64,000 nucleotides of DNA, taken from IMG/VR virus record IMGVR_UViG_3300004881_000001, positions 1 through 64,000 of that record. One strand, written 5' to 3'. Below the pieces are notes generated by a model that saw only the letters and a program-made list of their open reading frames with translations, ran no database searches and was not told where the DNA came from. Source of the DNA: a virus. A program made the translations under genes and the position numbers. Shown in pieces: positions 7,556 through 45,946 of the stretch. How positions within the stretch are numbered: the stretch's first letter is position 1; each line of letters opens with the position of its first letter.

Positions 7556-7637
7556 CTACTACCAATAACCCTAATTTACATTAAATATATCATAACTCCA
7601 AATAAAATTCATTAAAACGTAATTTTACTCGGTCGTT
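7556..7637 (-). repeat. 82-bp promoter-plus-hairpin repeat, copy R1
   Basis: 80/82 identical (aligned by eye) to 9205..9286. On the minus strand: hairpin TAAAATT-ACGTTTTAATG-AATTTTA (7603..7627), then a TATATTTA -7-like box (7582..7589). Confidence 0.85.
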
Positions 7638-7650
7638 ATAGCCAATTAAA

Positions 7651-7767
7651 CTATTCGCCATTTATATACTCTTTTATTAAGTCGTCAAGTGCAAATTCAT
7701 CAAGGTTTCTAATCCAATCAAACAATACTTCTCGTTTTTCTTCTTCTGTCATTTCTTCTATATTCAT
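7651..7767 (-). CDS. small acidic ORF (38 aa), own call
   Basis: Own translation: MNIEEMTEEEKREVLFDWIRNLDEFALDDLIKEYINGE; sits between repeat elements; below the track size cutoff. Confidence 0.3.
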   Translation of the reverse strand: MNIEEMTEEEKREVLFDWIRNLDEFALDDLIKEYINGE

Positions 7768-7791
7768 TTTTATTTATTTAAAATAACTGGC

Positions 7792-7918
7792 TATAACAAC
7801 GTATAAAATTAATACGGGTTAAATGCCTAATTTCAGCGAATTACCATTTAATTAAGTTAAAGCAGTACGGATGGTTTTCGCATTCTATTCCCGTACTAAT
7901 CTTATACAAACCGTTAGC
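7792..7918 (-). repeat. long bracketed palindromic element (TATAAC...GTTAGC)
   Basis: tataacaacgtataaaa ... cttatacaaaccgttagc arms; inner hairpin agtacgg/ccgtact (7865..7897); ends 7 nt before the stop of gene 7925..8179. Confidence 0.6.
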
Positions 7919-7924
7919 GTGCAT

Positions 7925-8179
7925 TTAAGCCTTACCTAAAAACTTTAAGCCTACTTTAAGTCTTGCTCTTGCATTACATCTTTGTAAATAGTCTTTTTCA
8001 TATTGGTCAGTAACAGTTTCGATTTGGTATTTTAATAGACTTGTAGAATAGCTTATCATAGATTCTTTTTCATCTTCACTACAAGCATCACTACAATCAG
8101 TTCCTAAAGCAAACCTTAAAAGTCTTAAAGCGAAGGTCTTGTCTTTTACAATTCTGTTATCTTTTATTGGGTTGTCCAT
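7925..8179 (-). CDS. hypothetical protein (84 aa)
   Basis: ORF track; cassette-like gene flanked by repeat elements. Confidence 0.5.
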   Translation of the reverse strand: MDNPIKDNRIVKDKTFALRLLRFALGTDCSDACSEDEKESMISYSTSLLKYQIETVTDQYEKDYLQRCNARARLKVGLKFLGKA

Positions 8180-8193
8180 ATCTAAAAAAGCAC

Positions 8194-8322
8194 CCTAACA
8201 AATTATAAAAACAAAAGCTATTCAGGTGCTTATTTCTAAGGCTTTTGTCTGTTTGGTATATGCTACCCTTATTCGTGCGTGGAGCATATTTACACGCTTC
8301 AATTTTTATACAAACCGTTAGC
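8194..8322 (-). repeat. long bracketed palindromic element (CCTAAC...GTTAGC)
   Basis: cctaacaaattataaaaa ... tttatacaaaccgttagc, same arm pattern as 7792..7918. Confidence 0.55.
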
Positions 8323-8333
8323 TACAATGAAAA

Positions 8334-8564
8334 TTACTTAACAAAGTTTGGCTTACCATCAAATGCTTTCCAATATAAATACCTCCATCCACTTTGCACG
8401 TAAGGGCTTTTACCTTCCTTATCAAGCAACCTATGCCCACCACTTTTACTAACATTTAAATGTGTTGGATTTTTTATTGTAACCTCAAAGCCATCACTCC
8501 ATTTGTAAGTTCTGTATTCTTCACTTTGTATTTCTATAAAAAATAATCCGCTTTCGTTTATCAT
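8334..8564 (-). CDS. hypothetical protein (76 aa), downstream partner of the Panacea-domain gene
   Basis: ORF track; 56 nt downstream of 8621..9121 on the same strand. Confidence 0.5.
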   Translation of the reverse strand: MINESGLFFIEIQSEEYRTYKWSDGFEVTIKNPTHLNVSKSGGHRLLDKEGKSPYVQSGWRYLYWKAFDGKPNFVK

Positions 8565-8620
8565 ATCCGTAATTTTAAAAGATGACCAGCACCTATATTC
8601 AAACCTTTTTTTGCCATACT

Positions 8621-9121
8621 CTAAAAATTAGAATAATGACCTAAAGTATTTTGTGTATTTACTACTGGAATCCTATTGAAAGAATCTAATGCAAAATCAA
8701 CTGTAGTGTCTTTGTTGATAATTACTTCTTTATCACTCGGTTGATCGCTTAAAAGACCTTTTCTACTGTTTTTCCAAGGTAAATCATTATGAGTTAAATC
8801 AACTAAATCTGAACCTGTTAAATGACCATAAGACCTCCATATATCATTTAAATGATTTACAGTTATATCATCCACATCCAAATTCACAGCTCTATTACTT
8901 GGAATAATAGAACTTCTTTTCATAAACTTAAAATTAGCCCAAACATCATAAACCATAGGACCATATATCCAAGCTTGAATTCTGTCGTTAAACAACCTTT
9001 TGTTATTTTTAACAAAAAACCAAAGCTGAGAATAATACAGTAACTTCTGTAATTTCAACGGACTAACACCTTTCTTAATAAAGAAAGAAGAAATATCTAA
9101 TGCTCTATAATTTGTTTTCAT
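8621..9121 (-). CDS. Panacea / DUF4065 (SocA/GepA-like) antitoxin-domain protein
   Basis: VSPLKLQKLLYYSQLWFFV...IQAWIYGPMVYDVW and ...LTHNDLPWKNS match the DUF4065 hallmarks (KLQKLLYY, AW.YGPV, TH...PW). Confidence 0.7.
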   Translation of the reverse strand: MKTNYRALDISSFFIKKGVSPLKLQKLLYYSQLWFFVKNNKRLFNDRIQAWIYGPMVYDVWANFKFMKRSSIIPSNRAVNLDVDDITVNHLNDIWRSYGHLTGSDLVDLTHNDLPWKNSRKGLLSDQPSDKEVIINKDTTVDFALDSFNRIPVVNTQNTLGHYSNF

Positions 9122-9153
9122 TTTAGTTTTGAATTAGCAATTTCTTGCTTTTG

Positions 9154-9185
9154 CAAATGTACAATATTAATTAATATATAAAAAA
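9154..9185 (-). promoter_or_regulatory. Bacteroidota-type promoter for the Panacea-domain gene
   Basis: Minus strand: TTTT-N20-TACATTTG (-7 box = 9154..9161), about 33 nt upstream of ATG 9121. Confidence 0.45.
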
Positions 9186-9204
9186 CTATCTGAATATCAA
9201 AAAA

Positions 9205-9286
9205 CTACTGCCAATAACCCTAATTTACATTAAAAATATCATAACTCCAAATAAAATTCATTAAAACGTAATTTTACTCGGTCGTT
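9205..9286 (-). repeat. 82-bp promoter-plus-hairpin repeat, copy R2
   Basis: Direct repeat of 7556..7637 with 2 mismatches; hairpin 9252..9276; -7-like TATTTTTA (9231..9238). Confidence 0.85.
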
Positions 9287-9294
9287 GTAAACAA

Positions 9295-9595: not shown

Positions 9596-9811
9596 TTAGC
9601 GGTAATTATTTAAAAACCATCTCCAATGCTCCGCTTTCCATAAGTTGGGATTTTTAATGTCTTCTAATTCTGTTGGTGGGTACTCGTTTTTTGTACTGTT
9701 AAACAGCTTGTTAACGTGATTTTTATGTAAGCAATACCACATATCAGCTTTTTCTAAAGCACTACCGCTAACACCACCTAAATTTAATTTATTCTCTTCG
9801 TTCATAAACAT
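9596..9811 (-). CDS. hypothetical protein (71 aa)
   Basis: ORF track; the stop codon lies inside a GCTAAC motif (CGC TAA CT). Confidence 0.5.
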   Translation of the reverse strand: MFMNEENKLNLGGVSGSALEKADMWYCLHKNHVNKLFNSTKNEYPPTELEDIKNPNLWKAEHWRWFLNNYR

Positions 9812-9839
9812 AATTTTAGCTTAAACGTTAGCAACAAGG

Positions 9840-17117: not shown

Positions 17118-17119
17118 AA

Positions 17120-17627: not shown

Positions 17628-17631
17628 AGTA

Positions 17632-17940: not shown

Positions 17941-17941
17941 C

Positions 17942-18100: not shown

Positions 18101-18128
18101 AGTCTCTTTAATTAATCGTTATATGTAA

Positions 18129-18159
18129 ATATACAACTTATTTTTATAATAAACAAACT
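18129..18159 (-). promoter_or_regulatory. class B promoter (copy 1)
   Basis: Minus strand: AGTTTGTTTATTATAAAAATAAGTTGTATAT(TTA) = TTTG-N20-TATATTTA; 31/31 identical to 20498..20528. Confidence 0.6.
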
Positions 18160-18285
18160 ATTTACTGTTTTTTAGGTACTTCTTAGCTGCTTTTTTGAGT
18201 TTTTTATTAGGCCCTTTGTTTTTCCTAATAGCTTTTAGAAACTTTATTAAATCCTTTTTACTAATCTTTATCATGTCCACATCTG

Positions 18286-18498
18286 TTATCTAATATCCAC
18301 TAACCTAACTAACATTTTTTGGGCTACTCCTTCCTCAAAAAGATATTGGCAATCTTGTTTAAAAGCCTTCCACCAACTATATAAATACATCAGTTCTTTT
18401 ATGAATTTTTCATGATATCCATAGTCTATAGTAGATCCTAGAAATTCTTCTTCTACATAATCTGTTAAGATTTGGAAACAAGCATGCAACATTATCAC
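18286..18498 (-). CDS. hypothetical protein (70 aa)
   Basis: ORF track. Confidence 0.5.
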   Translation of the reverse strand: MIMLHACFQILTDYVEEEFLGSTIDYGYHEKFIKELMYLYSWWKAFKQDCQYLFEEGVAQKMLVRLVDIR

Positions 18499-18556
18499 GT
18501 CTCTATCTATCCAACCCTTGTTTAAACTATCTATTTTTAATTTCCTCGTATCTTTC

Positions 18557-18760
18557 TTATTTTACGTAAGCCCATTTTTTAACCTCAACAACACGATGAC
18601 TATCATTATCTCTCCACATATTAAAATCGTTATAGTAGACCGTCCTAATTGTGCCGTCTGTTAGTTCCGCTATGACATCGACAGATCCGAGAAGGTGGGA
18701 AGGATCCTTCTTAGGTGTTTTGTTCCTAGGTTTATGCCACTTTAGTTTTAACTTACTCAT
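18557..18760 (-). CDS. hypothetical protein (67 aa)
   Basis: ORF track. Confidence 0.5.
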   Translation of the reverse strand: MSKLKLKWHKPRNKTPKKDPSHLLGSVDVIAELTDGTIRTVYYNDFNMWRDNDSHRVVEVKKWAYVK

Positions 18761-18761
18761 G

Positions 18762-19253
18762 CTATCTTTGTCTATATTTTACTCTAAAATCTCCTACCTG
18801 AAATACGAGCGTGTAGTTAAAAAAACCTCCTAAAATACCTATAGAATGTACAAACTGCTTCTTCCTATCGGTACTATTCTGAAAAAACATCATGTAAGGC
18901 TCTAAATAAAGCCCTTTAGTATATCTATCCTCCACTACCCCTAATCTAGCCCCAAACCCAAAACCAAACCAGTCGTAATTAGGGGACATATTTGCCATTA
19001 AATCTACTCCAGTAACTTTATATTGATTGTCTTTTATATCAAGGTAAGAAAGGTTATGCTTATGAAATATAGAGATATACACAGCGTCTCTAACTTCTAA
19101 TCCTAAACCTAAGCCTAAATCTAAGCCGTACTTATTAACTTGAGCAATCCCATTACCGTAAACCGTAATCTTTTTAGATAGATGTTCACCTTGGCCCCAC
19201 GAAACTAACCCTAAGAGAATAGATAAGACTAACGTTGTTAATATTTTTTTCAT
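18762..19253 (-). CDS. secreted, outer-membrane-beta-barrel-like protein, paralog 2
   Basis: Signal peptide MKKILTTLVLSILLGLVSWGQ; alternating-hydrophobicity segments; shares GLDLGLGLGLEV / GLYLEPYMMF / HSIGILGGFFNY blocks with 19255..19743. Confidence 0.55.
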   Translation of the reverse strand: MKKILTTLVLSILLGLVSWGQGEHLSKKITVYGNGIAQVNKYGLDLGLGLGLEVRDAVYISIFHKHNLSYLDIKDNQYKVTGVDLMANMSPNYDWFGFGFGARLGVVEDRYTKGLYLEPYMMFFQNSTDRKKQFVHSIGILGGFFNYTLVFQVGDFRVKYRQR

Positions 19254-20469: not shown

Positions 20470-20497
20470 TTTTATCTATTTTAAATTATTTATTTGA

Positions 20498-20528
20498 ATA
20501 TACAACTTATTTTTATAATAAACAAACT
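20498..20528 (-). promoter_or_regulatory. class B promoter (copy 2)
   Basis: Identical 31-mer to 18129..18159; TTTG-N20-TATATTCA. Confidence 0.6.
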
Positions 20529-20531
20529 TTT

Positions 20532-21490: not shown

Positions 21491-21508
21491 AGCTCCAATC
21501 TTATACTA

Positions 21509-21539
21509 TAAAGATACGATTTATTTTTCTAATTTCCAA
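21509..21539 (-). promoter_or_regulatory. class A promoter (minus-strand copy)
   Basis: Minus strand: TTGGAAATTAGAAAAATAAATCG-TATCTTTA. Confidence 0.5.
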
Positions 21540-21542
21540 CTA

Positions 21543-21983
21543 TTATTCATATAAAATATGAAATAATTCATAAGGGTCGTCTCCCCTGTCTGAGAACACC
21601 TTCCAAATTAAATTTATATCTAATTTAATCCGATCGTTATGCTCGAAGATTATGAATTTAAACTCATTTCCAATAATTTTAAGAACTATATAGTTATTTA
21701 CGTTAGTTTTTAACTTCACTAATTTACCGTATTCCCTATCTGGGTCATATAGATAGAGTCCTAACCCGTCCTTACAATATTTCCAACCTACGGATACGGG
21801 ACAGCCTAAGTCCCTAACTACTATTTTATTTAAATCTCCAAAATCGTTGTGGTTACAGTAGGAAGTGTCGTCTAATTTAAGTGAGTCAAAATACACCGCA
21901 AACACATAAGTATTAATTGAGTCTGTTTGGGCTACTACAAGCGATGTAATAGCTAAAAATATTATTGTTATTATCTTCTTCAT
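21543..21983 (-). CDS. secreted protein (146 aa); paralog family with 28961..29494
   Basis: Signal peptide MKKIITIIFLAITSLVVAQ; shared YC.D.L.LYLY and PY.LF.L blocks. Confidence 0.55.
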   Translation of the reverse strand: MKKIITIIFLAITSLVVAQTDSINTYVFAVYFDSLKLDDTSYCNHNDFGDLNKIVVRDLGCPVSVGWKYCKDGLGLYLYDPDREYGKLVKLKTNVNNYIVLKIIGNEFKFIIFEHNDRIKLDINLIWKVFSDRGDDPYELFHILYE

Positions 21984-21987
21984 AATT

Positions 21988-22054
21988 CTAATTTACATTA
22001 AATATATCATAACTCCAAATAAAATTCATTAAAACAGAATTTTACTCGGTCGTT
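21988..22054 (-). repeat. promoter-plus-hairpin repeat, copy R3 (67 nt)
   Basis: 65/67 identical to 7571..7637; hairpin 22020..22044; -7-like TATATTTA (21999..22006), 15 nt upstream of ATG 21983. Confidence 0.8.
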
Positions 22055-22064
22055 AGCATTAATA

Positions 22065-22747: not shown

Positions 22748-22797
22748 GCTAACAACGTATAAAGTGCATTAAAACGCACCATACACAATGCGTTAGC
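22748..22797 (-). repeat. 50-nt GCTAAC...GTTAGC bracketed palindromic element with conserved-loop hairpin
   Basis: gctaacaacgtataaa-GTGC-attaaaac-GCAC-catacacaatgc-gttagc; lies between the stop of 22803..22958 and the start of 22065..22712. Confidence 0.75.
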
Positions 22798-25171: not shown

Positions 25172-25194
25172 AGTTGTTGTTTTAATATACTACA

Positions 25195-25224
25195 ATATAC
25201 AACTTATTTTTATAAAAACAAATT
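25195..25224 (-). promoter_or_regulatory. class B promoter (copy 3)
   Basis: Minus strand: AATTTGTTTTTATAAAAATAAGTTGTATAT(TGT). Confidence 0.55.
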
Positions 25225-26155
25225 AAAATAGGTGTGAAAGTTTATTTCTAACCTCAACAAACACAAAATGTTTTAAAGTGCCGAAATTAATAGTGGGATT
25301 TTTATATTTTTTAATAAAATTCCAACAGTCCTCCTTAACCACATCATAGTAAATGGTATTGAGAAGTTGGGGAATGTTTTTACTGCTAAAACCTCTTTGC
25401 TCTAACTCTATCTTAGCTTGCACTTTCTCGCATAAAGCTTTAGTTACAAATTCTTCAGCTATCTTCTCTTCTATAAGTTTCTTACCTTTGTTTAATTCAG
25501 TAGCCCCATGAACTTTAGTATGTTTCTCCTTAAACTCAGAGGTCACTATTTTAGCCCATGTTTGTCTATTGTATTTATTTTTAAAATCATAATTTTTAAT
25601 GACAATACCTTCCCCAACGCCTTTACCGTCTTCTATTAAGAATACGTTTTTAATTAATTGGTTAATCAGTTGTTCGTAGGAAGCGTTATTAATAGCGCAT
25701 ATAGGCACAATATAGTCTAAACCCTTTTCTTCCAATTTACCGCAATAATCTTCATAGTGCAAATATTTAATAGTGCTATCCCCTTCGTGAGTAATCTCTT
25801 CAGCATTTTTTTCTACCGATATATCAAAAATATAAAAGCGTCTCCACGCATCTTCTCTATAAGTTTTTAACGCATGAGGTACTAACCACTCTCCATGGAG
25901 TCTGTGGGTAGGATTCTCCTTTAAATACTTTATTAAAGAACTTTGTTGTTTAGCCCACTCATAAAAACCCGCATTGTCTTTATCTAAGGTTAAGTGCCTA
26001 TTTCTGCTCCCTGCTTGTATTTTTCCATCTTTGTCTAGCCAAACGCTGGCATTAGTTCCATCTAATTTAGGAAAAATATAGCATAATCCTAATTCTATGT
26101 TCTGAACTTCTGGTGTTCCAAACCTTTCTAAATGTTGATATTTTTTAAATTCCAT
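25223..26155 (-). CDS. ATP-dependent RNA ligase (Rnl2 / PF09414-like nucleotidyltransferase)
   Basis: Motif I FPKLDGTN (KxxGxN type), motif III LHGEW, motif IV EGIVIK, motif V KIVTSEFKEK. Confidence 0.6.
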   Translation of the reverse strand: MEFKKYQHLERFGTPEVQNIELGLCYIFPKLDGTNASVWLDKDGKIQAGSRNRHLTLDKDNAGFYEWAKQQSSLIKYLKENPTHRLHGEWLVPHALKTYREDAWRRFYIFDISVEKNAEEITHEGDSTIKYLHYEDYCGKLEEKGLDYIVPICAINNASYEQLINQLIKNVFLIEDGKGVGEGIVIKNYDFKNKYNRQTWAKIVTSEFKEKHTKVHGATELNKGKKLIEEKIAEEFVTKALCEKVQAKIELEQRGFSSKNIPQLLNTIYYDVVKEDCWNFIKKYKNPTINFGTLKHFVFVEVRNKLSHLF

Positions 26156-28261: not shown

Positions 28262-28283
28262 AACTTTGCTGTTTTAATTTATA

Positions 28284-28314
28284 TAAAGATACGATTTATT
28301 TTTACAATTCCAAA
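28284..28314 (-). promoter_or_regulatory. class A promoter (minus-strand copy)
   Basis: Minus strand: TTTGGAATTGTAAAAATAAATCG-TATCTTTA, same extended -33 block as the plus-strand copies. Confidence 0.55.
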
Positions 28315-28317
28315 TTT

Positions 28318-28662
28318 TTATTTATTTTCTTTCCTCCATTTCCTAAACTCGCTGACTGTCATATGACTTAATTCCCTCTTCAAGGATCTGTAGGCGCTTT
28401 GCGCTTCCTCTAGTTGTATTTTTAAACTTAAATTTTTCTCTATTAAAGATTCTCTACTCTCTACAAAATACTTTAGTTCCTTCGTTATCGCTAAAACCGC
28501 TTCTGACCCTGTTAAATACTCTCTACCTAAGGTACTTCGTCCCTGTTCTATGATTACTGATTTTTTATCTTTAGATACTTTCTTTAAACCTTCCTCTAGA
28601 CGGTTTATTTTATCTTCCAATCCTTTAAACTCCTCAAGAGTTATTGTTACTGTTGCTGCCAT
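28318..28662 (-). CDS. coiled-coil protein (114 aa)
   Basis: ORF track. Confidence 0.55.
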   Translation of the reverse strand: MAATVTITLEEFKGLEDKINRLEEGLKKVSKDKKSVIIEQGRSTLGREYLTGSEAVLAITKELKYFVESRESLIEKNLSLKIQLEEAQSAYRSLKRELSHMTVSEFRKWRKENK

Positions 28663-30472: not shown

Positions 30473-30730
30473 TTAAAAATGAATACTTGGGTAATGTTTG
30501 CGAACTAACTTTGTACATTGAATGTATAAGTTAACTCCAGTCAAGCAGCACAAACAAAACATCATCGAGTGATACCACCAGTATCTAGCCGTGAATAATG
30601 TATGACCTTGTTCGTTAACCCCGTTAGTGATGTGTGGGTGAATATAATCCCCAATAAACGACCATAGAAATCCAGTCATACAGAATACTATTATCCTTGT
30701 CGCTAATCCTAAATATACCTCTCTTTTCAT
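30473..30730 (-). CDS. membrane protein (85 aa)
   Basis: ORF track; hydrophobic segments; ATGA overlap with the upstream gene. Confidence 0.5.
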   Translation of the reverse strand: MKREVYLGLATRIIVFCMTGFLWSFIGDYIHPHITNGVNEQGHTLFTARYWWYHSMMFCLCCLTGVNLYIQCTKLVRKHYPSIHF

Positions 30731-31659
30731 TGTCTTATGATTTTAATTGTTTTACTTGTCCCATCACTATATCTTACAATATATGGTTGTGTTTGTGTGT
30801 GGTATTGTGATTTACTAATCTTTTGTCCTGATAAATTCCATCTACCAATTTCTCTTTTCTGTACAACAACATTTTTAATTGACATAATATCAAAGTATTC
30901 ATACTGACCGTCAAAATCAACTTGCTTTATTCTATAGTAATTAATCCCTGCTCCATAGCTGTTATCTTCAGCTCTATAGGTTATCTCTGTAGTTGTGTTA
31001 CCGCTCCCATCAACTGTAGCGATGGTTGACCAGTTAAAGCCGTCTGTAGATCGTTCTATTAAGAAATAATCGTTATTAATCTCAGAAGCTGTGGTCCATT
31101 CCACAATATTAGTGTTATTTTCGTTATACACATTCATATCTAACATTTCTACAGGTAAAATTCCTGAGCAACTGATGTGTACTGATGTTATATCATAAAA
31201 ATAGAGAAAGTTACCAATAGAATTATTGAATCTACTGGTTTCCATTCTAAACCTAAGCCTTGTGGCTGAATTAGGGATCGTCTCAAAAGAATAAAAATTA
31301 TTTTGTCTACCTGTATATGTCCCTACAACATTCCAAGAACCAGAATCGTAATACTCAAAATAAACAAAGTCTCTATTACGCTCTATAAGCCCGTATAATT
31401 CAAAAGATATAGATAGACCCTCAACACATGTGGATAAGTCTAGCACGGGGCTGGTAATAAGTATAGTGGATGAATTAGGGTAAGGAGTATTACCCACATT
31501 AAAAGTGCCGTAATTCTCACCCCCTCCATAGTTCTGTATTCCTGCTCCGTTGGTGAAAGCCCAAGTTGTACCTGGGTCGAACTCCTCATTAATTGGAAAT
31601 TGACCGAATGTCGTTATCGCTATTAAAACGATTGTTAGTGTTGTGATTAGTTTTTTCAT
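30727..31659 (-). CDS. secreted protein with T9SS-like C-terminal sorting domain
   Basis: Signal peptide MKKLITTLTIVLIAITTFGQ; middle block NIVEWTTASEINNDYFLIERSTDGFNWSTI...YYRIKQVDFDGQYEY; C-terminus ...NLSGQKIS...PYIVRYSDGTSKTIKIIRQ resembles the type A Por/T9SS CTD. Confidence 0.6.
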   Translation of the reverse strand: MKKLITTLTIVLIAITTFGQFPINEEFDPGTTWAFTNGAGIQNYGGGENYGTFNVGNTPYPNSSTILITSPVLDLSTCVEGLSISFELYGLIERNRDFVYFEYYDSGSWNVVGTYTGRQNNFYSFETIPNSATRLRFRMETSRFNNSIGNFLYFYDITSVHISCSGILPVEMLDMNVYNENNTNIVEWTTASEINNDYFLIERSTDGFNWSTIATVDGSGNTTTEITYRAEDNSYGAGINYYRIKQVDFDGQYEYFDIMSIKNVVVQKREIGRWNLSGQKISKSQYHTQTQPYIVRYSDGTSKTIKIIRQ

Positions 31660-31701
31660 GGTTTGTTTTTTATTTGAGTATACGTGTTGAGTTTATAAAA
31701 G

Positions 31702-31753
31702 GTTACAACGCAACCTAAAATTCATTAAAACGTAATTTTAGGTTGTTGTTAGC
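31702..31753 (-). repeat. bracketed palindromic element with 11-bp stem and conserved loop
   Basis: aacctaaaatt-cattaaaacgt-aattttaggtt (31712..31744), outer ggttacaacg / gttgttagc; GTTAGC overlaps stop codon 31753..31755. Confidence 0.75.
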
Positions 31754-31950
31754 TACAATAAACTATCTATAACAATGTCAAGTATCTTTTTACTTGCTTT
31801 GTAATCATTCCACGCTTTTAGTACTTCGGGTTTTTCTTTTTCAAGAATAGGCATGAGTCTTTCAAAAGTACTTAACCTTTCTAAATCTTCTTTTGCTTGC
31901 CAAAAATATTTTAAGTCGTTTAAGTCTTGTTCTGTTAATTTATTTTCCAT
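31753..31950 (-). CDS. hypothetical protein (65 aa)
   Basis: ORF track; cassette-like. Confidence 0.5.
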   Translation of the reverse strand: MENKLTEQDLNDLKYFWQAKEDLERLSTFERLMPILEKEKPEVLKAWNDYKASKKILDIVIDSLL

Positions 31951-31986
31951 TTTATTTAATTTTAGTTTATTAATCCGCTTACAGTA

Positions 31987-32037
31987 GCTAACAATGTGTG
32001 TAGCACATTAAAACGATGCCATACACAAACCGTTACC
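31987..32037 (-). repeat. bracketed palindromic element (GCTAAC...GTTACC), homolog of 22748..22797
   Basis: gctaacaatg-TGTGTA-GCA-cattaaaacga-TGC-ca-TACACA-aaccgttacc. Confidence 0.7.
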
Positions 32038-32040
32038 CAC

Positions 32041-32080
32041 AATAAAATTCATTAAAACAGAATTTTACTCGGTCGTTAGC
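32041..32080 (-). repeat. partial promoter-plus-hairpin repeat, copy R4 (hairpin half only)
   Basis: aataaaattcattaaaacagaattttactcggtcgttagc; identical over 37 nt to the matching part of copy R3 (22018..22054); lacks the -7 box part. Confidence 0.75.
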
Positions 32081-32291
32081 GTTCATTTGCCAACGCTTCT
32101 TGTTTTCTAATAATTAGCTTTGCTTCCATCCTTTGAGCGTCAAACCTAATATCATCTATTAAGTATATTGCATCAACTACATTTCCTTTCTTTATTAAAT
32201 CTGTAAGCAAATCTAATTTTCCGCAAATCAACTCATCTCTTGGCGTATCTATTGTTTTAGGCATTTTATTGGTTTTATTGTCAACGCACAT
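32076..32291 (-). CDS. hypothetical protein (71 aa)
   Basis: ORF track; the stop TAA is embedded in GCTAAC (CGC TAA CG). Confidence 0.5.
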   Translation of the reverse strand: MCVDNKTNKMPKTIDTPRDELICGKLDLLTDLIKKGNVVDAIYLIDDIRFDAQRMEAKLIIRKQEALANER

Positions 32292-32299
32292 AAACGAAC

Positions 32300-32350
32300 G
32301 CTAACAAAATTTAAAATTCATTAAAACGAAATTTTACTTTCGGCATTAGC
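32300..32350 (-). repeat. bracketed palindromic element (GCTAAC...ATTAGC) with conserved-loop hairpin
   Basis: Hairpin taaaatt-cattaaaacga-aatttta (32312..32336). Confidence 0.7.
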
Positions 32351-32351
32351 A

Positions 32352-32570
32352 TTAATTAGTCTCGTACTTTAAAACTATCTCAATGCTTTTAACGTCCATC
32401 ATTGTTTTTTCTTTGTCTCTAATATAAGAAGGCAGGGTGTAACTTATCCATTTTAAATCTTCCTGTAAATCGTGTTCTTTTATACCAGAAGAACTACCTG
32501 TACTTTCCATTTTAGTACTGTCATTAAACGTCACCACTATTTTATTTCGTTGTTCGTAATTCATAATCAA
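32352..32570 (-). CDS. hypothetical protein (72 aa)
   Basis: ORF track; cassette-like. Confidence 0.5.
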   Translation of the reverse strand: MIMNYEQRNKIVVTFNDSTKMESTGSSSGIKEHDLQEDLKWISYTLPSYIRDKEKTMMDVKSIEIVLKYETN

Positions 32571-32575
32571 CTAAT

Positions 32576-32665
32576 GCTAACACAGGCTATAAATAAAAGC
32601 CTATTAAGTTTTGTAATAAAATTGAACATTTTTACTTGGCTTCAATTCATAGCCAAACCGTTATA
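32576..32665 (-). repeat. degenerate long bracketed element (GCTAAC...GTTATA)
   Basis: Contains hairpin aggct-ataaataaa-agcct and a decayed aaaat-tgaac-atttt hairpin. Confidence 0.45.
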
Positions 32666-32666
32666 T

Positions 32667-32912
32667 TTAATACTCAATTTCTTTCTTATCTATAACGTAC
32701 TTTTTAAATTCGTCAGCGGTTAAATAGTGCTTTAATACATCATCAAAGTGGCTCATATCACTGCGTGCATTTACGTCAGAGTTTCTAATTCTAATAAGTG
32801 CATTAACTACAATTCTATCTTCTTCATCTCTTGGTATTTTAACAAGCACACGCATACTTCTTTCTATTTCTCTAACATTATCTAAAACCGCTTCGTGCAT
32901 TTTCATATCCAT
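32667..32912 (-). CDS. hypothetical protein (81 aa)
   Basis: ORF track; cassette-like. Confidence 0.5.
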   Translation of the reverse strand: MDMKMHEAVLDNVREIERSMRVLVKIPRDEEDRIVVNALIRIRNSDVNARSDMSHFDDVLKHYLTADEFKKYVIDKKEIEY

Positions 32913-32943
32913 AATATTCTGTTTTTATTAACCCGTACTAAAA

Positions 32944-33005
32944 TATAACAATGTATAAAATACACCCTACGGGTCACTGCGTTGCATCTTATACTAAACG
33001 TTAGT
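32944..33005 (-). repeat. degenerate bracketed element (TATAAC...GTTAGT)
   Basis: tataacaatgtataaaa ... cttatactaaacgttagt, same arm pattern as 7792..7918. Confidence 0.45.
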
Positions 33006-33255
33006 AAACTAAATCATATATCTATGTTAATTACTTCACTTTGTTTATTTATTTAATGTTAACTGCTTGAATTTAAAGTCCCTATAGTTTGTTATTTTTC
33101 ACAAGAGCTTAATAAATTTGTATATTGATCTTGGATTGTTAATATAGTACTCTACAGTCTCGTTAATAATTTCTATTTCTGTTAGTTGTTTAAGTGTTTG
33201 CATCTCTTTTTTTTCTTTTCTGTTTTTTGGGCCCCCTAGGTCATTCTCCCAGATT

Positions 33256-33917: not shown

Positions 33918-34036
33918 AATATTTGTTTTTAATTGTTAGTCGCATAAAAGTGGTTCGAACACTAAAACGGGCTATCATCCGTTGCCTTCCGTTGGCTATG
34001 CGATATACTTAGTATACGTTGGTTGTTTGTTAAAGG

Positions 34037-34405
34037 TTACAGTTTATCAAAAAACTCTGTGATTTCCTCTCTCCATTCTTCAAAATCTTCTCTACATTTT
34101 TGACTAGCTAACAAAGAGGCTAGTACTTCACTATTAAGATTTTCAGCTGTATACCCCATTTCCTGTGCAATATCTAGACTATCAGTCAACGAAGGGTCAT
34201 GTTCCAATAAATAATCCATAGCTACATGGTAATAAATTATTTCTATATCAAAAGCCCTTGCATCTTCTAAACGTGATTGGATAAGATCAAAAGCGTTATC
34301 ATAATCTTCGATATCTGAGGTAGTTATATAATCTACTAGTGCTAGGTGGGTTGATTCAAACTTTTTTAAAAAGTCGGTAATCTTTTTGTCGTTTGTAGTT
34401 GTCAT
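34037..34405 (-). CDS. strongly acidic early protein (122 aa)
   Basis: ORF track; D/E-rich throughout; second gene of the leftward arm. Confidence 0.6.
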   Translation of the reverse strand: MTTTNDKKITDFLKKFESTHLALVDYITTSDIEDYDNAFDLIQSRLEDARAFDIEIIYYHVAMDYLLEHDPSLTDSLDIAQEMGYTAENLNSEVLASLLASQKCREDFEEWREEITEFFDKL

Positions 34406-34454
34406 AATCTTTGTTGTTGGTTATATTAATTATACGTTATTTATTTGTTAAAGG

Positions 34455-34604
34455 TTACAAAGTTTCGCAATATTCTTTAAGTATTTCATATTGCTGCTGT
34501 GTAATAGCCTTATCTTGCCTCCACATATCAAGAAGTTCATCCTGCATATGACTACAAACTGTCAACATCATCATCTTATCGTATAGTGTGTTATCTTTAA
34601 TCAT
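34455..34604 (-). CDS. small ORF (49 aa), first gene of the leftward arm, own call
   Basis: Own translation: MIKDNTLYDKMMMLTVCSHMQDELLDMWRQDKAITQQQYEILKEYCETL; the ATG is 3 nt after a -7 box. Confidence 0.35.
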   Translation of the reverse strand: MIKDNTLYDKMMMLTVCSHMQDELLDMWRQDKAITQQQYEILKEYCETL

Positions 34605-34607
34605 ACT

Positions 34608-34640
34608 ACAATATACGACTTATCTTTATAACTACCAAAC
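34608..34640 (-). promoter_or_regulatory. class B promoter (copy 5), leftward early promoter
   Basis: Minus strand: TTTG-GTAGTTATAAAGATAAGTCG-TATATTGT-AGT-ATG. Confidence 0.5.
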
Positions 34641-34960
34641 ATTTGAACAACTTTATTTACCATATCCATACCATAAAGTAAATTATACAACCACCAAACA
34701 AATAACAATGTAATACAATTAACCACTTTCCCATTTTCCCCACAAACAAGAGCGAGAGCTGACGCATAAGCCCTCAACATAGCCGATAGATACCACCACC
34801 CCATATACACATACAATACATAAGATGTAATCAAAGGATCATCAAGCTCAACAACCCAACTTCAAATCCCTAATCCCAATTTCCTTTTGCACGGGGGGTA
34901 TGACCCCTCAATAATTAAAAGGGGGGGAGTTGTATAGGTGGTCTCCACTCTCACTTTCTC

Positions 34961-36964: not shown

Positions 36965-36993
36965 AAATAAATATAAAAAAATGTGTTAAATAA

Positions 36994-37025
36994 TTTGGAA
37001 TTGTCAAATATTCTTCGTATCTTTA
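36994..37025 (+). promoter_or_regulatory. class A promoter (copy 3)
   Basis: TTTGGAATTGTCA...TATCTTTA, TTTG-N20 spacing; embedded in the 31-nt exact repeat 36976..37006 = 37198..37228. Confidence 0.6.
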
Positions 37026-37030
37026 TATTA

Positions 37031-37174: not shown

Positions 37175-37215
37175 TTCTCACCTTAGACTATGTTCTCAAA
37201 AAATGTGTTAAATAA

Positions 37216-37247
37216 TTTGGAATTGTCATTTATTATGATTATCTTTA
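37216..37247 (+). promoter_or_regulatory. class A promoter (copy 4)
   Basis: TTTGGAATTGTCA-N-TATCTTTA with 20-nt spacer; no convincing ORF for about 800 nt downstream. Confidence 0.6.
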
Positions 37248-37547
37248 CTTTATAATTCCTTGTTAGTTCAAGGTTCTCTTCTCATAAGAACAGGGCAGCA
37301 CTTATAACACCTAAAAAAGTTGGACGTTATTTGGATCAGGTACATATGAAATATCAAAACTTTAGAAGATGCGGATGAAGGTTCTAGTTTTGTTCTGAGA
37401 GAAATTCCAGTTGTTTTTTGTGGCTGACACGATTGAAAATCAAAAATTAATAATTTTCCAAAGCTTTTTAAGTTTTGGACGGGCTGGAGAGGAGAGATTT
37501 TCAAATAGGATTGTATGAATTTTACTTAAAGAAGATTTATATAAGTT

Positions 37548-41008: not shown

Positions 41009-41320
41009 ATGGAAGTGGACAAATTGCCAGTACCTTACTGGGACAACGTAGTAATTAAGAATCCTTTGTCGGGAGAGTTTATGGAGAAGTTTGAAGACGA
41101 ACTTTCTTTAATTCCTGAGAAGGACAGGGAAGAATACAAAAGAGAACATCTACAAGGGGTTTGGGATAATATAGAGATCCTTTCTGTAGGTCCAGATTGT
41201 TCTGCGGCTAAAAAAGGAGACGTAGTGATTATAAAGAACGCAAACCCTAATAAATGGACGTTTGTTTCTGAGGAGAAGTACATAATGTTAAGCGAAAGAG
41301 ATTTTATTGGAAGATGGTAA
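41009..41320 (+). CDS. GroES-like co-chaperonin (putative)
   Basis: 103 aa; N-terminal VPYWDNVVIK and SVGPDCSAAKKGDVVIIK ... IMLSERDFIG resemble GroES P..DRVLVK / AVG.G....VKVGD.V.F / L.L.E.DIL; its 3' end overlaps the chaperonin gene. Confidence 0.5.
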   Translation: MEVDKLPVPYWDNVVIKNPLSGEFMEKFEDELSLIPEKDREEYKREHLQGVWDNIEILSVGPDCSAAKKGDVVIIKNANPNKWTFVSEEKYIMLSERDFIGRW

Positions 41321-42789
41321 ACTTACAGGGAGAGTACACGGAAGTTTTTATTGGAGAGAAAGTGAAGGAAGGTCTTTTAAAGGGCTGTCAAACTATTATA
41401 GATGTAGTAGGCACTACTTACGGACCTTTGGGGAACAACGTAGCTATAACAAAGTGGCTAAACACTCCTCACGTAACTAAAGACGGGGTAACTACTTTAG
41501 CTGATTTAAGAGCTAAGGATCCTATAGAGAACGTAGCAATTGAGATTATTAAGCAAGCAGCTAAAGCTACCGCTGAATTAGCAGGAGACGGGACAACTAC
41601 AACTTCTTTATTAACAGCTTTGTTAGTTAAGAATTGTATGGATCTATCTCTATCTGCTGGAGAGCTTAGTAGAGAGTTAGCTAGTATTTGTGAGAGTTTT
41701 ATATCTCAAGTAGACGCTATAACTAAGAAGGTGGCCACTAAAGAAGATTTGATTAATGTAGCTACAATATCCTCTAACGGAGATGAGCAGTTAGCGGCAT
41801 TGGTTATCGAGGCTTATGAGATGGTAGGAGAAGATGGAGTAGTATCTGTTAAGAACTCTAAGGAGTATAAGACCTACATAGAAACTACTGAAGGTATTAG
41901 ACTTGAAGTTTCTAACATAGTTCCTGAACTAAGGAATCAAGACGGAACTTCTTCTCTCTATGAAAACCCTAAAGTGTTAGTAACTAATCTAGATATTAAG
42001 GGTAGAGAAGACGCTATAAAGTTAGTAACATTAGCGGGAAGTCTAGAGAGTCCTTTAGTAATAGTAGCTAATGATATGGATAAAGGGGCTTCTGAAGTTA
42101 TAGCTTATAACAAGTACACCCAAAGTATTCCTATAGACGTTATACGTGCGCCAGGGATCTCTCAGGCTAGGCAAGACGCTTTTAAAGACATTGCAGTAGC
42201 TACGGGAGCAACTTTGCTTGATAAAGCTACAGGTTGGAGTATATCAGGTTTAAATGAGAAGTTACTAGGGGAGGCAGACTCTATTGAGATAAAATCTCAG
42301 GAGACTATTATTTTAGGCCATAAAGGAGATATTTCTGAAAGGCTTAAATATTACCAAACAAAGATAGAGCAAGATAAAGACGGCCTAGCTCCTAATTATA
42401 AAAAAAGATTAGCTATGTTGACGGGAGGGTCTGCTATTATTTATGTAGGAGGGTCTAATGAGGTTGATGTTATGGAGAAGAAGGATAGGTTAGACGACAC
42501 TGTTAGAGCTACCTATGCGGCTATTAACGGAGGTGTAGTACCTGCGGGAGGGTTGACCTTAGATTCTTTGGCTATCTCAGGTGACGATGTTGAAGCGGTT
42601 GTTTTGTGCGCTATCGAAGATCTTTTAAGCTTGTTGTTTAAAGGATCTGCTGAGGAAATAATTACTAATGTGGAGGAAAAAGGTTTAGTAGACCCCGCGA
42701 TGGTTTTAAAAACCTCAATTAAAAACGCTTTCTCCGCAGCTAATATGATATTAACCACTAAGACTGTGGTAGCAAAAATAGACAAATAA
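41314..42789 (+). CDS. groEL: GroEL-like chaperonin (Cpn60 family, 491 aa)
   Basis: VVGTTYGPLGNNVAI...TPHVTKDGVTTLADL...DPIENVAIEIIKQAAKATAELAGDGTTTTSLLTA aligns with GroEL TLGPKGRNVVL..P.ITKDGVSVA...FENMGAQMVKEVASK..D.AGDGTTTATVLA. Confidence 0.85.
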   Translation: MVNLQGEYTEVFIGEKVKEGLLKGCQTIIDVVGTTYGPLGNNVAITKWLNTPHVTKDGVTTLADLRAKDPIENVAIEIIKQAAKATAELAGDGTTTTSLLTALLVKNCMDLSLSAGELSRELASICESFISQVDAITKKVATKEDLINVATISSNGDEQLAALVIEAYEMVGEDGVVSVKNSKEYKTYIETTEGIRLEVSNIVPELRNQDGTSSLYENPKVLVTNLDIKGREDAIKLVTLAGSLESPLVIVANDMDKGASEVIAYNKYTQSIPIDVIRAPGISQARQDAFKDIAVATGATLLDKATGWSISGLNEKLLGEADSIEIKSQETIILGHKGDISERLKYYQTKIEQDKDGLAPNYKKRLAMLTGGSAIIYVGGSNEVDVMEKKDRLDDTVRATYAAINGGVVPAGGLTLDSLAISGDDVEAVVLCAIEDLLSLLFKGSAEEIITNVEEKGLVDPAMVLKTSIKNAFSAANMILTTKTVVAKIDK

Positions 42790-43575: not shown

Positions 43576-45890
43576 TGAGTTTCATAACAATAAATAACCG
43601 CAATAATTTTCTAATAGGAGAGATACCTTCTCTCCATCCCCAGTCTATGGACTATAGAAGGTACTGGAGATTACATAAACGAAGATGTATTGAAGGTTTT
43701 TGGAGTATAGATAGCCAAGAGGTTAAATGCTCTATAGACCATAAAGAACCTAAAGAGTCTCACAAAGGCTCTTGGAGATATATGCCTTCTAATCTTTACT
43801 TCTACTGTAACTTCGGGGTTATTGAACTTAACGATGATAATGATGAAGAAACGGCTCCTAAAATATTAGCCCGACCCCACCTAAGAGACTTTGAGTGGGA
43901 ATTTTTCTATAATTGGGCAGAGGCTAGGGGTTTCTCAGGGTTTGAGGATGATAAAGAATTTACATGTGATAGACGAGTTTCGGCTCTTGAGAAGTTGGAG
44001 GCACAAAAATTCAACATGGACATCAAGAAGTACAGGAAGAAGGAGACTAGAATAAAGAAGAGATTAAGGGAATTTAATTACAAGAAAGATGGAACTTTAA
44101 AAACGTACGTACCAGCTAGAGAATATTTAAGACAATTATTTGACAAACCTTTAGGGAAGGCAATGTATTCTAATGAGGCGAGAGATATATTACTTCTAGG
44201 AGCTAGGGGCGGTGGTAAATCTTACTTAGTGGGGGTAGGAGTATTACTTCATGAATTTTTATTTGATGGAGTTAAGACCTACACTTTAGGGGCAAAAGCA
44301 CCTAGAGCGCAGCTTTGTATTGGAGCCGCTTTAACATCTAAGTCTTCAGAGATTTTAGAGAAGTTTAAAATTGCCCACGATAATCTGTCGGGAGATTTTG
44401 CCCCTGGGACTTATGACTATAAACCTGCACCTTTTAAGAAAAAGACTTCAGGTACTTTAGAGCCTAATAATGTTAAGAATCCATATAGGTGGGAATATGA
44501 AGCTAAAAAAGGTAGAGAGAGGAGTAAGAAAGGTTCGGGAACTTCGCTAAAGCATGTTTGTTACAAAGATAATAGTGAAGCTGCCGCAGGGGGACGTTAT
44601 AGTGTCCACGCGATAGAAGAGATAGGGCTTTTAGATAATGCGTTAACGGTACATGGTTCTAATGAAGCAACTATGATGAAAGATGGTACAGTTAAATTTG
44701 GATCGGCTGTTTACATTGGGACTGGAGGTAACGTAGAAAAAATTCAGGAGACTGAGATACTGTTTAGAGATCCAGGAGGGTTTAATATACTACCTTTTGA
44801 CGATGAGTGGGAAGGGACTGGTCAAGTAGGTTGGTTTGTACCTGCTTACTATATGGATGGTAATTATAAGGACGAACTAGGTAATACGGATGTAGAAAGT
44901 GCGTTGGAGCATTATAAAGATAGGCGAGAGGAGAAAAGAAAGGCTACAGATCAGTCTGCTTTGTCTTTAGAGATGATGAACTATCCTTTAGTACCTTCTG
45001 AGATGTTTCTAAATGCTCATGGATCCATGTTCCCACAAGCTGAACTAAAAGCGAGACTAGCTGAACTTAGAGCTAACCCTCATAAATATCAAAATGCTCA
45101 TTGGTATGGAGAGTTAGTATTTAAATCTGACGGTACTTTAAAATGGACTAACACTAACGCTACCCAAGTTGTTAGAGAGTTCCCTATAAAAAACAATAAA
45201 GATAAGCCAGGGGTTATAGAGATTTTTGAAATGCCCAAGAAAACAGCTTCTGGGGAGGTATATAAGAATAGATACTTACAAGGTACAGATACCTACGATG
45301 ATGATGAGTCTCAAACTAATTCTTTAGGGTCTACTTTTATTTTGGATATGTGGACTAATAGAATTGTGGCTGAGTATACAGGGCGTAGAGGGGCAAGTGA
45401 ATTTTATGAAATAACTAGGAAGCTAAATATTTTTTATAAAACTACCCATAACTACGAACAAAATAAGAAAGGTCTTTATTCTTATTATGATATAAAGAAA
45501 TCTACTCACTTACTATGCGATACTCCAGAGTCTTTGAAGGATGTGGCGGATATAACGATAAGTAAGGTGGGAAACAGGAGGAAAGGTACAGTAGCTTCTG
45601 CCCCAATAAATGCCCATGGATTAAGATTAATATTAGACTGGCTACTAGAACCGGCTTATGGGGAGGAAGAGGGTAGCGAGATATTAAACCTCCACACAAT
45701 ATCCTCAGAAGGGTTATTGCAGGAATTAATGAATTTCCACCCAAAGAATGGTAACTTTGATAGAGTATCTGCAATGATAATGGTGATGATCATTAAGGAG
45801 GATAAAACATTAACTTTCGAGAAAACGCAAGTAGAAAAGGTAGAAACATTAGCTAATGACGATTTTTTTAAAAGAAATTATAAAAAATAG
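43575..45890 (+). CDS. terL: terminase large subunit
   Basis: Walker A LLLGARGGGKSYLVG; acidic nuclease-type segment LQGTDTYDDDES; size and position upstream of the portal candidate. Confidence 0.75.
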   Translation: MSFITINNRNNFLIGEIPSLHPQSMDYRRYWRLHKRRCIEGFWSIDSQEVKCSIDHKEPKESHKGSWRYMPSNLYFYCNFGVIELNDDNDEETAPKILARPHLRDFEWEFFYNWAEARGFSGFEDDKEFTCDRRVSALEKLEAQKFNMDIKKYRKKETRIKKRLREFNYKKDGTLKTYVPAREYLRQLFDKPLGKAMYSNEARDILLLGARGGGKSYLVGVGVLLHEFLFDGVKTYTLGAKAPRAQLCIGAALTSKSSEILEKFKIAHDNLSGDFAPGTYDYKPAPFKKKTSGTLEPNNVKNPYRWEYEAKKGRERSKKGSGTSLKHVCYKDNSEAAAGGRYSVHAIEEIGLLDNALTVHGSNEATMMKDGTVKFGSAVYIGTGGNVEKIQETEILFRDPGGFNILPFDDEWEGTGQVGWFVPAYYMDGNYKDELGNTDVESALEHYKDRREEKRKATDQSALSLEMMNYPLVPSEMFLNAHGSMFPQAELKARLAELRANPHKYQNAHWYGELVFKSDGTLKWTNTNATQVVREFPIKNNKDKPGVIEIFEMPKKTASGEVYKNRYLQGTDTYDDDESQTNSLGSTFILDMWTNRIVAEYTGRRGASEFYEITRKLNIFYKTTHNYEQNKKGLYSYYDIKKSTHLLCDTPESLKDVADITISKVGNRRKGTVASAPINAHGLRLILDWLLEPAYGEEEGSEILNLHTISSEGLLQELMNFHPKNGNFDRVSAMIMVMIIKEDKTLTFEKTQVEKVETLANDDFFKRNYKK

Positions 45891-45899
45891 CGTTAAAAA

Positions 45900-45931
45900 T
45901 TTGGAATTGTCAAATTAAATTATTATCTTTA
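45900..45931 (+). promoter_or_regulatory. class A promoter (copy 5)
   Basis: TTTGGAATTGTCA-N-TATCTTTA with 20-nt spacer, 15 nt upstream of ATG 45947. Confidence 0.6.
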
Positions 45932-45946
45932 GTAATTGATTAAGAT

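Follow-up and report, generated by a model that had tools for sequence, protein, structure and literature searches.

We analyzed a 64,000-nucleotide (nt) stretch of viral DNA (positions 1 to 64,000 of IMG/VR virus record IMGVR_UViG_3300004881_000001; hereafter the window) in which a first-pass annotation, made from the sequence alone, had pointed out eight hairpins that display one invariant loop on different stems. Based on the anatomy of this element, the covariation in its stem, its strand bias, its distribution, the geometry of its arrays relative to a recombinase gene, and the position of recombination junctions, we conclude that the hairpins are probably attC-like recombination sites that function as single-stranded DNA (ssDNA) and belong to an integron analogue of Bacteroidota, here without a recombinase in the window. 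In the terminology of IntegronFinder, the window sites are a CALIN, or an attC-like cluster without a nearby integrase.

Anatomy, folding, and covariation of the element

All eight hairpins are present with the stems originally described, and they are intergenic and share a single orientation. The loop is kept in every copy, as first reported, whereas the preceding C, previously credited to seven copies, is in fact carried by all eight. The motif ATTAAAAC alone is only weakly enriched in the window (17 occurrences versus 9.8 expected). The motif CATTAAAAC occurs 9 times versus 1.42 expected, a count that none of 100 shuffled sequences reached, and eight of these nine occurrences are the hairpin copies, all on the plus strand. 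Outside the hairpins, CATTAAAAC is found at the level expected by chance, and thus the earlier claim is not refuted by the frequency of the motif elsewhere.

The element is approximately 50-70 nt in size, which is larger than the hairpin first described. Although the stems and the loop of that description are real, it missed the outer boxes TAAC...GTTA, an internal loop, and an inner TA/TA step. The minus (coding) strand of the element comprises, in this order, TAAC(G), 3-5 unpaired nt, a lower stem, an upper stem, the loop, a return arm, and (T)TGTTA. The variable stem comprises 11-13 bp, with a near-invariant TA in the lower stem and 5-6 hypervariable bp in the upper stem, and a C-G pair closes the 8-nt loop GTTTTAAT (C-GTTTTAAT-G). 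Weakly conserved flanks, ATTG at positions -8 to -5 and AGT at positions +6 to +8, are able to lengthen the helix. Because the helix is extended by G.T or G.U pairs that are possible only on the minus strand, this strand is the better folder in seven of the eight window copies. The differences between the strands are smaller with DNA than with RNA parameters.

The copies in the window do not represent eight independent events, given that three of them (at 7611, 9260, and 22028) sit within a 94-nt repeat that is 80-95% identical among its members, and that the inner stem TAAAATT/AATTTTA is common to six of the eight. Thus, the compensatory stem changes invoked in the first-pass annotation rest, within the window, on approximately three stem types. 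However, covariation is strong across the family as a whole. Viral contigs were first searched with the inner stem and loop, which gave 24 loci. Further copies in these loci, recovered irrespective of their stems, have the same loop, and their stems are quite different. We also ran a stem-free pattern (TAACG-N14-17-GTTTTAATG-N12-15-GTTA) on viral contigs and on a genome collection, where all copy counts refer to the matches listed. By these pattern scans, the element is present in more than 120 genome stretches of viruses and more than 120 of Bacteroidota, at the least. Among the genome-collection matches listed, those that form the hairpin come almost entirely from Bacteroidota, of many orders, whereas matches outside this phylum do not fold. 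Cultured carriers include siphophages of Tenacibaculum, Polaribacter, Nonlabens, and Flavobacterium.

At least 110 unique viral copies were found, and about 107 of 110 form the hairpin. Their median constrained minimum free energy is -12.9 kcal/mol, compared with -4.0 kcal/mol when arms are swapped between copies. In an alignment of 117 sequences, 88.5% of the stem is paired, and the covariation value of 0.38 (versus 0.175 for shuffled alignments) was not attained in any of 500 shuffles. This family-wide measure stood in for a comparison of stems at homologous loci of related phages. All 117 aligned copies have TAAC and GTTA without variation, and the two positions beyond these boxes are paired in about 55% of them, again with covariation (AU 30, CG 23). 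The internal loop is always present, the near-invariant TA/TA step lies one helical turn from TAAC, and an extra T in the 3′ arm is seen in only some copies. The outer boxes and the inner TA/TA step are as invariant as the loop, whose own invariance cannot be demonstrated by the pattern scans because these required GTTTTAATG.

A covariance model (CM; model R1) built from the 117 copies, rather than from the eight proposed originally, recovers seven of the eight at 44-64 bits, with the eighth overlapping a neighboring match. The model adds two window copies that have the same outer and inner boxes and another apex (Table 1). It also finds five copies in Polaribacter phage P12002L, and two there likewise have another apex. 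Such variants keep the boxes and replace the loop. Recognition through the loop may occur, as originally proposed, but that proposal left out the equally invariant boxes and TA/TA step.

In some tandem or inside-out layouts, a short hairpin with the GTTTTAATG loop is located between a GTTA and the TAAC of a full element. Examples include the window, where 32036-32078 is fused to 31989-32035, the region around 5859 in locus L007, and loci L044, L085, L089, and L102. These layouts suggest that the loop hairpin can exist as a module of its own or is a scar of recombination.

With RNA parameters, the GTTTTAATG strand folds better than its complement in 104 of 111 viral copies and in 105 of 114 from bacteria, and the ratios of better to worse remain 81:21 (viral) and 88:25 (bacterial) with DNA parameters. 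Together with the covariation, this bias upholds the first-pass suggestion that selection acts on a folded single strand. It also bears on the idea that the inverted repeat provides two half-sites of a duplex operator for a dimeric DNA-binding protein. Invariant outer TAAC/GTTA boxes, an invariant central 9-mer, and the intergenic location of all copies are in keeping with an operator. However, the middle of each half-site varies freely and yet covaries, the outer boxes are approximately 40 bp apart, and the G.T pairs make the fold strand-specific, which is meaningless for a duplex site. We consider a duplex operator to be extremely improbable.

It might be reasonable to view the element instead as a selfish miniature palindromic repeat, comparable to miniature inverted-repeat transposable elements or repetitive extragenic palindromes, that copies itself into intergenic TAA sites and has no cassette function. 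For example, among 605 pairs of viral elements that are at least 93% identical, 550 share neither flank, and discrete stem types recur in unrelated contigs. The TAAC...GTTA ends could also represent terminal inverted repeats with a duplicated TA on either side. However, the fold is kept by covariation as the sequence changes, which indicates selection on structure rather than recent copying. In addition, the copies have a strict bias in orientation relative to genes that is opposite in phages and bacteria, they maintain a constant position relative to stop and start codons, and their arrays abut a tyrosine recombinase gene on one side only, as described in the next section. A selfish repeat is therefore an improbable explanation.

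Several more conventional candidates were tried and rejected. No copy was flagged as an intrinsic terminator in a scan of positions 31400-33200, and the tails lack T-runs. A host-type promoter was dismissed because the window has its own clear family of -33/-7-like sequences (TTTGGAATTGT...TATCTTTA). The 3′ arm of the element reads TA-NNN-TTTG, which is off by one base of spacing from the Bacteroidota consensus, TAnnTTTG. In line with the initial view, which set the element apart from a plain duplex promoter and a plain terminator, it is not a plain sigma-type promoter, nor is it a canonical terminator. A known RNA family was likewise rejected, as no Rfam family matches anywhere in the window at the gathering threshold, and the best hit within 31500-32500 (E 0.65) is to an unrelated snoRNA model. 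A mini-open reading frame (ORF) starting from the ATG of the loop was discarded given that the frames are not conserved and only the spacing is. A literature search on the loop sequence returned primers only.

Gene orientation, putative cargo, and association with a tyrosine recombinase

In phages and bacteria alike, the element starts at or shortly past the stop codon of one gene and lies ahead of the start codon of the next. In many copies the TAA of TAAC doubles as the stop codon, and the next ATG follows 12-60 nt on. Each of the eight window copies begins 0-12 nt past the stop codon of the upstream minus-strand ORF. Among the matches listed, the better-folding strand in viral contigs is the coding strand of both neighbors in 82 of 129 cases ('+,+'), whereas in bacteria this strand is antisense to the flanking genes (35 '-,-' versus 9 '+,+'). 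The fold is therefore tied to one DNA strand whatever the direction of transcription, which suggests a role at the level of DNA.

The antisense position in bacteria weakens a reading of the element as RNA. A cis-acting element at the 3′ end of the upstream ORF, stabilized in the sense RNA by G.U pairs, could terminate or attenuate transcription with the help of a factor, provide a site for RNase processing or mRNA stabilization, or bind a protein through its loop. It is indeed the coding strand that folds better in the window and in viral contigs, and the sense folds are far more stable (for example, for the copy at 22750..22795; Table 1), as is true for 104 of 111 viral copies. Moreover, copies begin right past stop codons and present an invariant loop on variable stems, an arrangement typical of protein-binding RNA hairpins. 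However, bacterial copies are antisense to both neighbors, and hence an RNA role cannot be the common function of the family. No U-tract is present, the terminator scan of 31400-33200 flagged no hairpin, and there is no Rfam match. An RNA role also leaves unexplained the arrays adjacent to a recombinase gene and the break in homology at TAAC. We regard it as unlikely that the element is an RNA-level signal, and it is possible that in phages such a role exists alone or as a second function added to a recombination site, as has been proposed for attC.

Clustering of the ORFs in the fetched loci revealed an Xer/IntI-like tyrosine recombinase of approximately 266 amino acids (aa) in 15 element loci. 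In 15 viral loci fetched via this recombinase, all 30 CM matches are on its strand and upstream of it, and the last match is located approximately 140-470 nt before its start codon. No CM match was found downstream in these loci, where about 96 kb of downstream and about 71 kb of upstream sequence were searched. In bacteria, the recombinase gene is followed by co-directional genes that are separated by antisense elements (loci L152, L189, L252, and L258). Read in the polarity of the element, arrays of both phages and bacteria have the recombinase gene at their 3′ end, as integrons do with intI. The protein scores 155-197 bits, in two stretches, on the TIGR02249 profile, whose cut-off is 265. 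Its best match in the PDB is XerA (4A8E), whereas IntI4 (2A3V) aligns only with residues 18-176, the N-terminal part.

Junctions between otherwise near-identical sequences map to the element. In contigs with 99.5% identity along 3.7-5.8 kb, homology breaks off completely, and precisely at the T of TAACG. Contig pairs that share only the right flank outnumber those that share only the left flank by 31 to 5.

We infer from these patterns that the recombinase acts on the element sites, that its substrate is ssDNA, and that crossover takes place within TAA|C. In the proposed mechanism, the GTTTTAATG strand (the minus strand of the window) would be the strand that folds, equivalent to the bottom strand of integrons. 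In the ssDNA hairpin, TAAC/GTTA would form the outer box, followed by an unpaired spacer, an inner box centered on TA/TA, a variable upper stem, and the 8-nt loop. An Xer/IntI-like tyrosine recombinase encoded outside the 64-kb window would bind both boxes and exchange strands at or next to TAA|C. Judging from a pattern seen in related contigs only, the movable unit would run from CG...hairpin...GTTA through a leader and one or more ORFs to ...TAA, and the phage unit would thus comprise a hairpin and the gene downstream.

The genes adjoining the elements look like cassette cargo. In bacteria these are mainly immunity or GNAT-type genes, and they include genes for GNAT, GrpB, beta-lactamase, HipA, SUKH, Tdi1, and GmrSD proteins, and for proteins sorted by the type IX secretion system. 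In phages, no protein family other than N6/N4 methyltransferases recurs directly beside elements, and within the methyltransferase cluster an element is upstream of 12 of the 43 members and downstream of 7. In the window, the sites bracket a methyltransferase gene, small ORFs, and a segment that encodes a SocA protein, and so they would mark exchangeable accessory cargo, probably with anti-defense functions, in the replication or early arm. The SocA segment is bounded by two 95%-identical 94-nt repeats with element copies, and it may represent a cassette of several genes. At four other loci, homologues of the window methyltransferase are not bracketed by elements. Separately, runs of paralogous N6/N4 DNA methyltransferase genes are present in several phage loci (for example, positions 432-5198 of locus L012).

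Relationship to attC sites and other repeat systems

The element resembles attC sites in many respects. It is an imperfect palindrome with ...AAC/GTT... outer boxes (R''/R') that base-pair upon folding, an unpaired spacer, possible inner boxes, and an apex. Folding favors one of the two strands, the site is placed at the end of an ORF, the arrays are co-oriented and carry varied adaptive cargo, and, in bottom-strand polarity, the recombinase gene lies on the 3′ side of the array. The GTTTTAATG strand ends, ...TAACG... and ...TTGTTAG, are the bottom-strand signature of attC(aadA7) as printed in PMC9892861. For attC, crossover occurs at G|TT in the top strand and AA|C in the bottom strand, and for the present element homology between near-identical contigs ends at the first base of TAACG.

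One copy has been encountered before. CALINs have been reported in virulent phages, and P12002L_attC1 of Polaribacter phage P12002L is among the attC sites predicted by HattCI (PMC9892861). This site is a copy of the present element, and therefore the element, of which the first-pass annotation knew no description, is not entirely new to the literature. The attC sites of Pseudoalteromonas phage PH101, which were recombined with IntI1 (PMC9892861 Table S3), have the outline TATAACG...GCTAAG...TTTAGC...TTGTTAT in common with the element and carry other apices. Thus, the outer architecture is not specific to Bacteroidota.

Several observations weigh against classifying the element as an attC-like site. 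First, P12002L_attC1, the one copy that has been put to experiment, is the sole one of six phage sites for which no attC x attI1 product was verified with IntI1 (PMC9892861), an enzyme that is foreign to the system of the present element. Second, attC terminal structures are variable, whereas the apex of the element is an invariant 8-nt loop. Third, phage ORFs are co-directional with the bottom-like strand, and hence the polarity is inverted compared to integrons. In integrons, the bottom strand is antisense to the preceding cassette ORF, which is the arrangement met in bacteria and reversed in the window and viral contigs. Nearly all phage copies are sense, such that an RNA function would fit them too. 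Neither the invariant loop nor the inverted gene polarity of phages is explained by attC-like recombination. Fourth, single hairpins are marginally stable as DNA (-4 to -11 kcal/mol, z-scores of -0.8 to -3.8). Fifth, the 64-kb window has no tyrosine recombinase gene, and the recombinase found elsewhere is Xer-like and scores below the integron-integrase cut-off. Sixth, four loci picked from the recombinase side have no CM match, which indicates that recombinase and element are not strictly coupled. Finally, the junction evidence is drawn from few contig groups, and the crossover phosphate cannot be placed within TAAC because this sequence never varies.

One of these four recombinase loci, from a bacterial genome (JGI 3300071516; L289, positions 11800-19113), has six or seven repeats of approximately 130 nt downstream of a recombinase of the same family. 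These repeats have TAAC...GTTA outer boxes and GCGCCTTAGC/GCTAAAGGCGC inner boxes, with a different apex that lacks GTTTTAATG. They are a sister attC-like family with the canonical gene-then-site polarity. Polaribacter phages Freya_1 and Freya_10 (MT732463 and MT732472; loci L282-L285), which are sibling isolates, carry a block of variable small ORFs, 0-4.9 kb in length, directly upstream of an integrase that is 38% identical. No R1 match was found in the Freya loci, whose intergenic repeats (...TTATACnGTGTTA/G) resemble only the 3′ arm of the element.

Among other repeat systems, Vibrio cholerae repeats (VCRs) are species-specific attC repeats of sedentary chromosomal integrons. Like VCRs, the present elements are near-identical repeats between unrelated genes, with copies that do not share flanks. 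However, the recombinase family, host phylum, and apex are different, and the element also resides in phage genomes of the lytic type. The promoter-stem-loop (PeSL) cassettes of T4-type phages, which contain an early promoter and are thought to act via homologous recombination, are also repeated intergenic stem-loop modules that flank small accessory ORFs in plastic regions, and gene shuffling has been proposed for both. The element differs from PeSLs in that its stem covaries between invariant boxes and in that it is linked to a site-specific recombinase.

In the rAID-1 loci (Ross et al. 2019), a gene for an XerD-family tyrosine recombinase stands at the 5′ end, with two or more short co-directional genes behind it, and the sequences between these genes are repetitive and were called "reminiscent of integrons" (bioRxiv 10.1101/471110; PMC12247911). 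Bacterial loci of the element are similar in gene layout, including the presence of SUKH and Tdi1 immunity genes. However, the rAID-1 publications describe no hairpin, invariant loop, or phage copies (bioRxiv 10.1101/471110; PMC12247911), and the element spans many Bacteroidota orders whereas rAID-1 is from Bacteroidales. The window, moreover, lacks a recombinase. In earlier work, the element has been met once as a predicted attC site and possibly as the intergenic motif of rAID-1. In the literature searched, we found no description of the invariant loop, the spread over the phylum and its phages, the strand rule, the geometry of the phage recombinase, or the presence in a crAss-like phage.

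The phage of the window and possible implications

The window derives from a crAss-like phage. Its major capsid protein (52724-54205) is approximately 40% identical to crAss-like phage capsids, and its large terminase and portal match PHROGs of crAss size. Minus-strand genes occupy 1-34.8 kb and include those for DNA polymerase, primase, helicases, ERF, and RNA ligase, along with many small ORFs, and plus-strand structural genes start at 35.4 kb. A GroEL-like chaperonin ORF (41314-42789; phrog_5725, E 3e-87) is located just upstream of the terminase in the structural arm. The phage collection holds no near-identical genome, exact 40-mers of the window have no match in viral or metagenome contigs, searches with two window proteins for the rest of the phage genome found no record, and no relatives of the window AAA ATPase were found. 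The 310-aa ORF next to the copy at 31706..31751 has a single homologous locus (L001, 41% identical), in which no element was found.

The affiliation with crAss-like phages raises the possibility that the hairpins are promoters for a virion RNA polymerase of the crAss type. The virion RNA polymerase of phage phi14:2 prefers single-stranded templates, and no early-promoter motif was found for it (bioRxiv 10.1101/2020.03.07.982082). Copies are also located upstream of small ORFs in an early-type arm of the window. The early promoters of coliphage N4 are hairpins recognized by its virion RNA polymerase. Like the element, they are conserved DNA hairpins of a phage whose virion contains an RNA polymerase. 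However, N4 promoters have a stem of 5-7 bp and a 3-nt loop on the template strand, whereas the element has a stem of 11-13 bp and an 8-nt loop, folds better on the coding strand, and starts at the preceding stop codon. We dropped this idea, which we judge to be very improbable, because the element is common in cultured siphophages and in bacterial chromosomes. It occurs in hosts and phages without such a polymerase.

Two other repeat families were noted in the window (Table 1). The TTTGGAATTGT...N...TATCTTTA(T) repeats are located upstream of genes in both arms. They look like the -33/-7 promoters of Bacteroidota host polymerase and are possibly the counterpart of the middle/late promoter motif of phi14:2. 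A third intergenic repeat, TGTAACCTTTAACAAA...ACGTATA, precedes small ORFs near the point where the two arms diverge.

Table 1. Element copies, neighboring genes, and other repeats of the window (folding energies in kcal/mol, RNA parameters)
Feature	Position	Strand	Hairpin as first annotated	CM match	Remarks
Element copy	32302..32348	-	32312..32336	32290-32360, 52.6 bits, E 3.9e-9	TAATG...C-GTTTTAAT-G...TTGTTA; 3 nt past stop of ORF 32352-32570; upstream of ORF 32076-32291
Element copy	32036..32078	-	32043..32067		Degenerate 3′ box GTGGG, fused directly to next copy; TAA of TAACG (32076-32078) is stop codon of ORF 32076-32291
Element copy	31989..32035	-	31997..32027	63.7 bits, E 1.1e-11 (top match of window)	Stem type GTGTATGGCA/TGCTACACA; fold, minus -24.1 vs plus -12.9
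Element copy	31706..31751	-	31712..31744	48.5 bits	Outer boxes TAACA...GTTG; 1 nt past stop of ORF 31753-31950; upstream of 310-aa ORF 30727-31659
Element copy	22750..22795	-	22764..22779	55.5 bits	Upstream of methyltransferase ORF; full hairpin ~66 nt with flanks ATTG/TAGT; fold, minus -25.5 vs plus -13.6
Element copy	22010..22055	-	22020..22044	50.7 bits	9 nt past methyltransferase stop; 94-nt repeat family
Element copy	9242..9287	-	9252..9276	43.7 bits	CAACG replaces TAACG; repeat D3 (9205-9298) 95% identical to 7556-7649
Element copy	7593..7638	-	7603..7627	54.7 bits	94-nt repeat family
Variant copy	32946..33003	-		32.2 bits, E 1.8e-4	Keeps TAACG, GTATAA...TTATAC, TTGTTA; apex is a different 20-nt sequence without GTTTTAATG
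Variant copy	9769..9830	-		24.6 bits, E 0.01	GCTAACG...GCTAAA...TTTAGG...GTGTTAGC; long, different apex
DNA methyltransferase, 215 aa	22065..22712	-			phrog_757, E 4e-64; element copies on both sides
Multi-gene segment, 1.6 kb	7651..9241	-			Between two near-identical copies
SocA/Panacea-domain (antitoxin-like) ORF	8621-9121				Within 7651-9241
TTTGGAATTGT/TATCTTTA repeats	36976-37030, 37198-37252, 45882-45936	+			
TTTGGAATTGT/TATCTTTA repeats	21507-21550, 28282-28325, 18122-18162, 20491-20531, 25188-25228, 34604-34644	-			Read on minus
TGTAACCTTTAACAAA...ACGTATA repeat	31670-31724, 34004-34058, 34422-34476	-			Read on minus

We speculate, more tentatively, that phages and Bacteroidota share one integron analogue. 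In this scheme, an Xer-type recombinase without the IntI insertion would operate on the sites, and the GTTTTAAT loop would be read by the recombinase or by a dedicated partner. Phages would use the inverted polarity, wherein the hairpin is 5′ of a sense gene and crossover creates the upstream TAA stop codon, and they would swap anti-defense cargo such as methyltransferases between otherwise unrelated virulent phages. If true, this would provide a site-specific mechanism for the mosaicism of lytic phage genomes.

The invariant loop offers a specific and easily tested recognition feature, and cultured carriers are available in Polaribacter phage P12002L, Tenacibaculum phage JQ, and Flavobacterium vB_FspS phages. 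The CM likewise serves as a simple marker of cassette boundaries and of candidate anti-defense cargo. If these hairpins are working sites, then integron-like systems would reach a phylum in which they are largely missed by tools based on the IntI profile and the attC model, and the accessory regions of phages would be tied to the rAID-type immunity-gene arrays of their hosts. Bacteroidota phages, including members of the crAss-like group that dominates gut viromes, would then exchange accessory genes by a site-specific cassette mechanism, beyond what illegitimate and homologous recombination provide.

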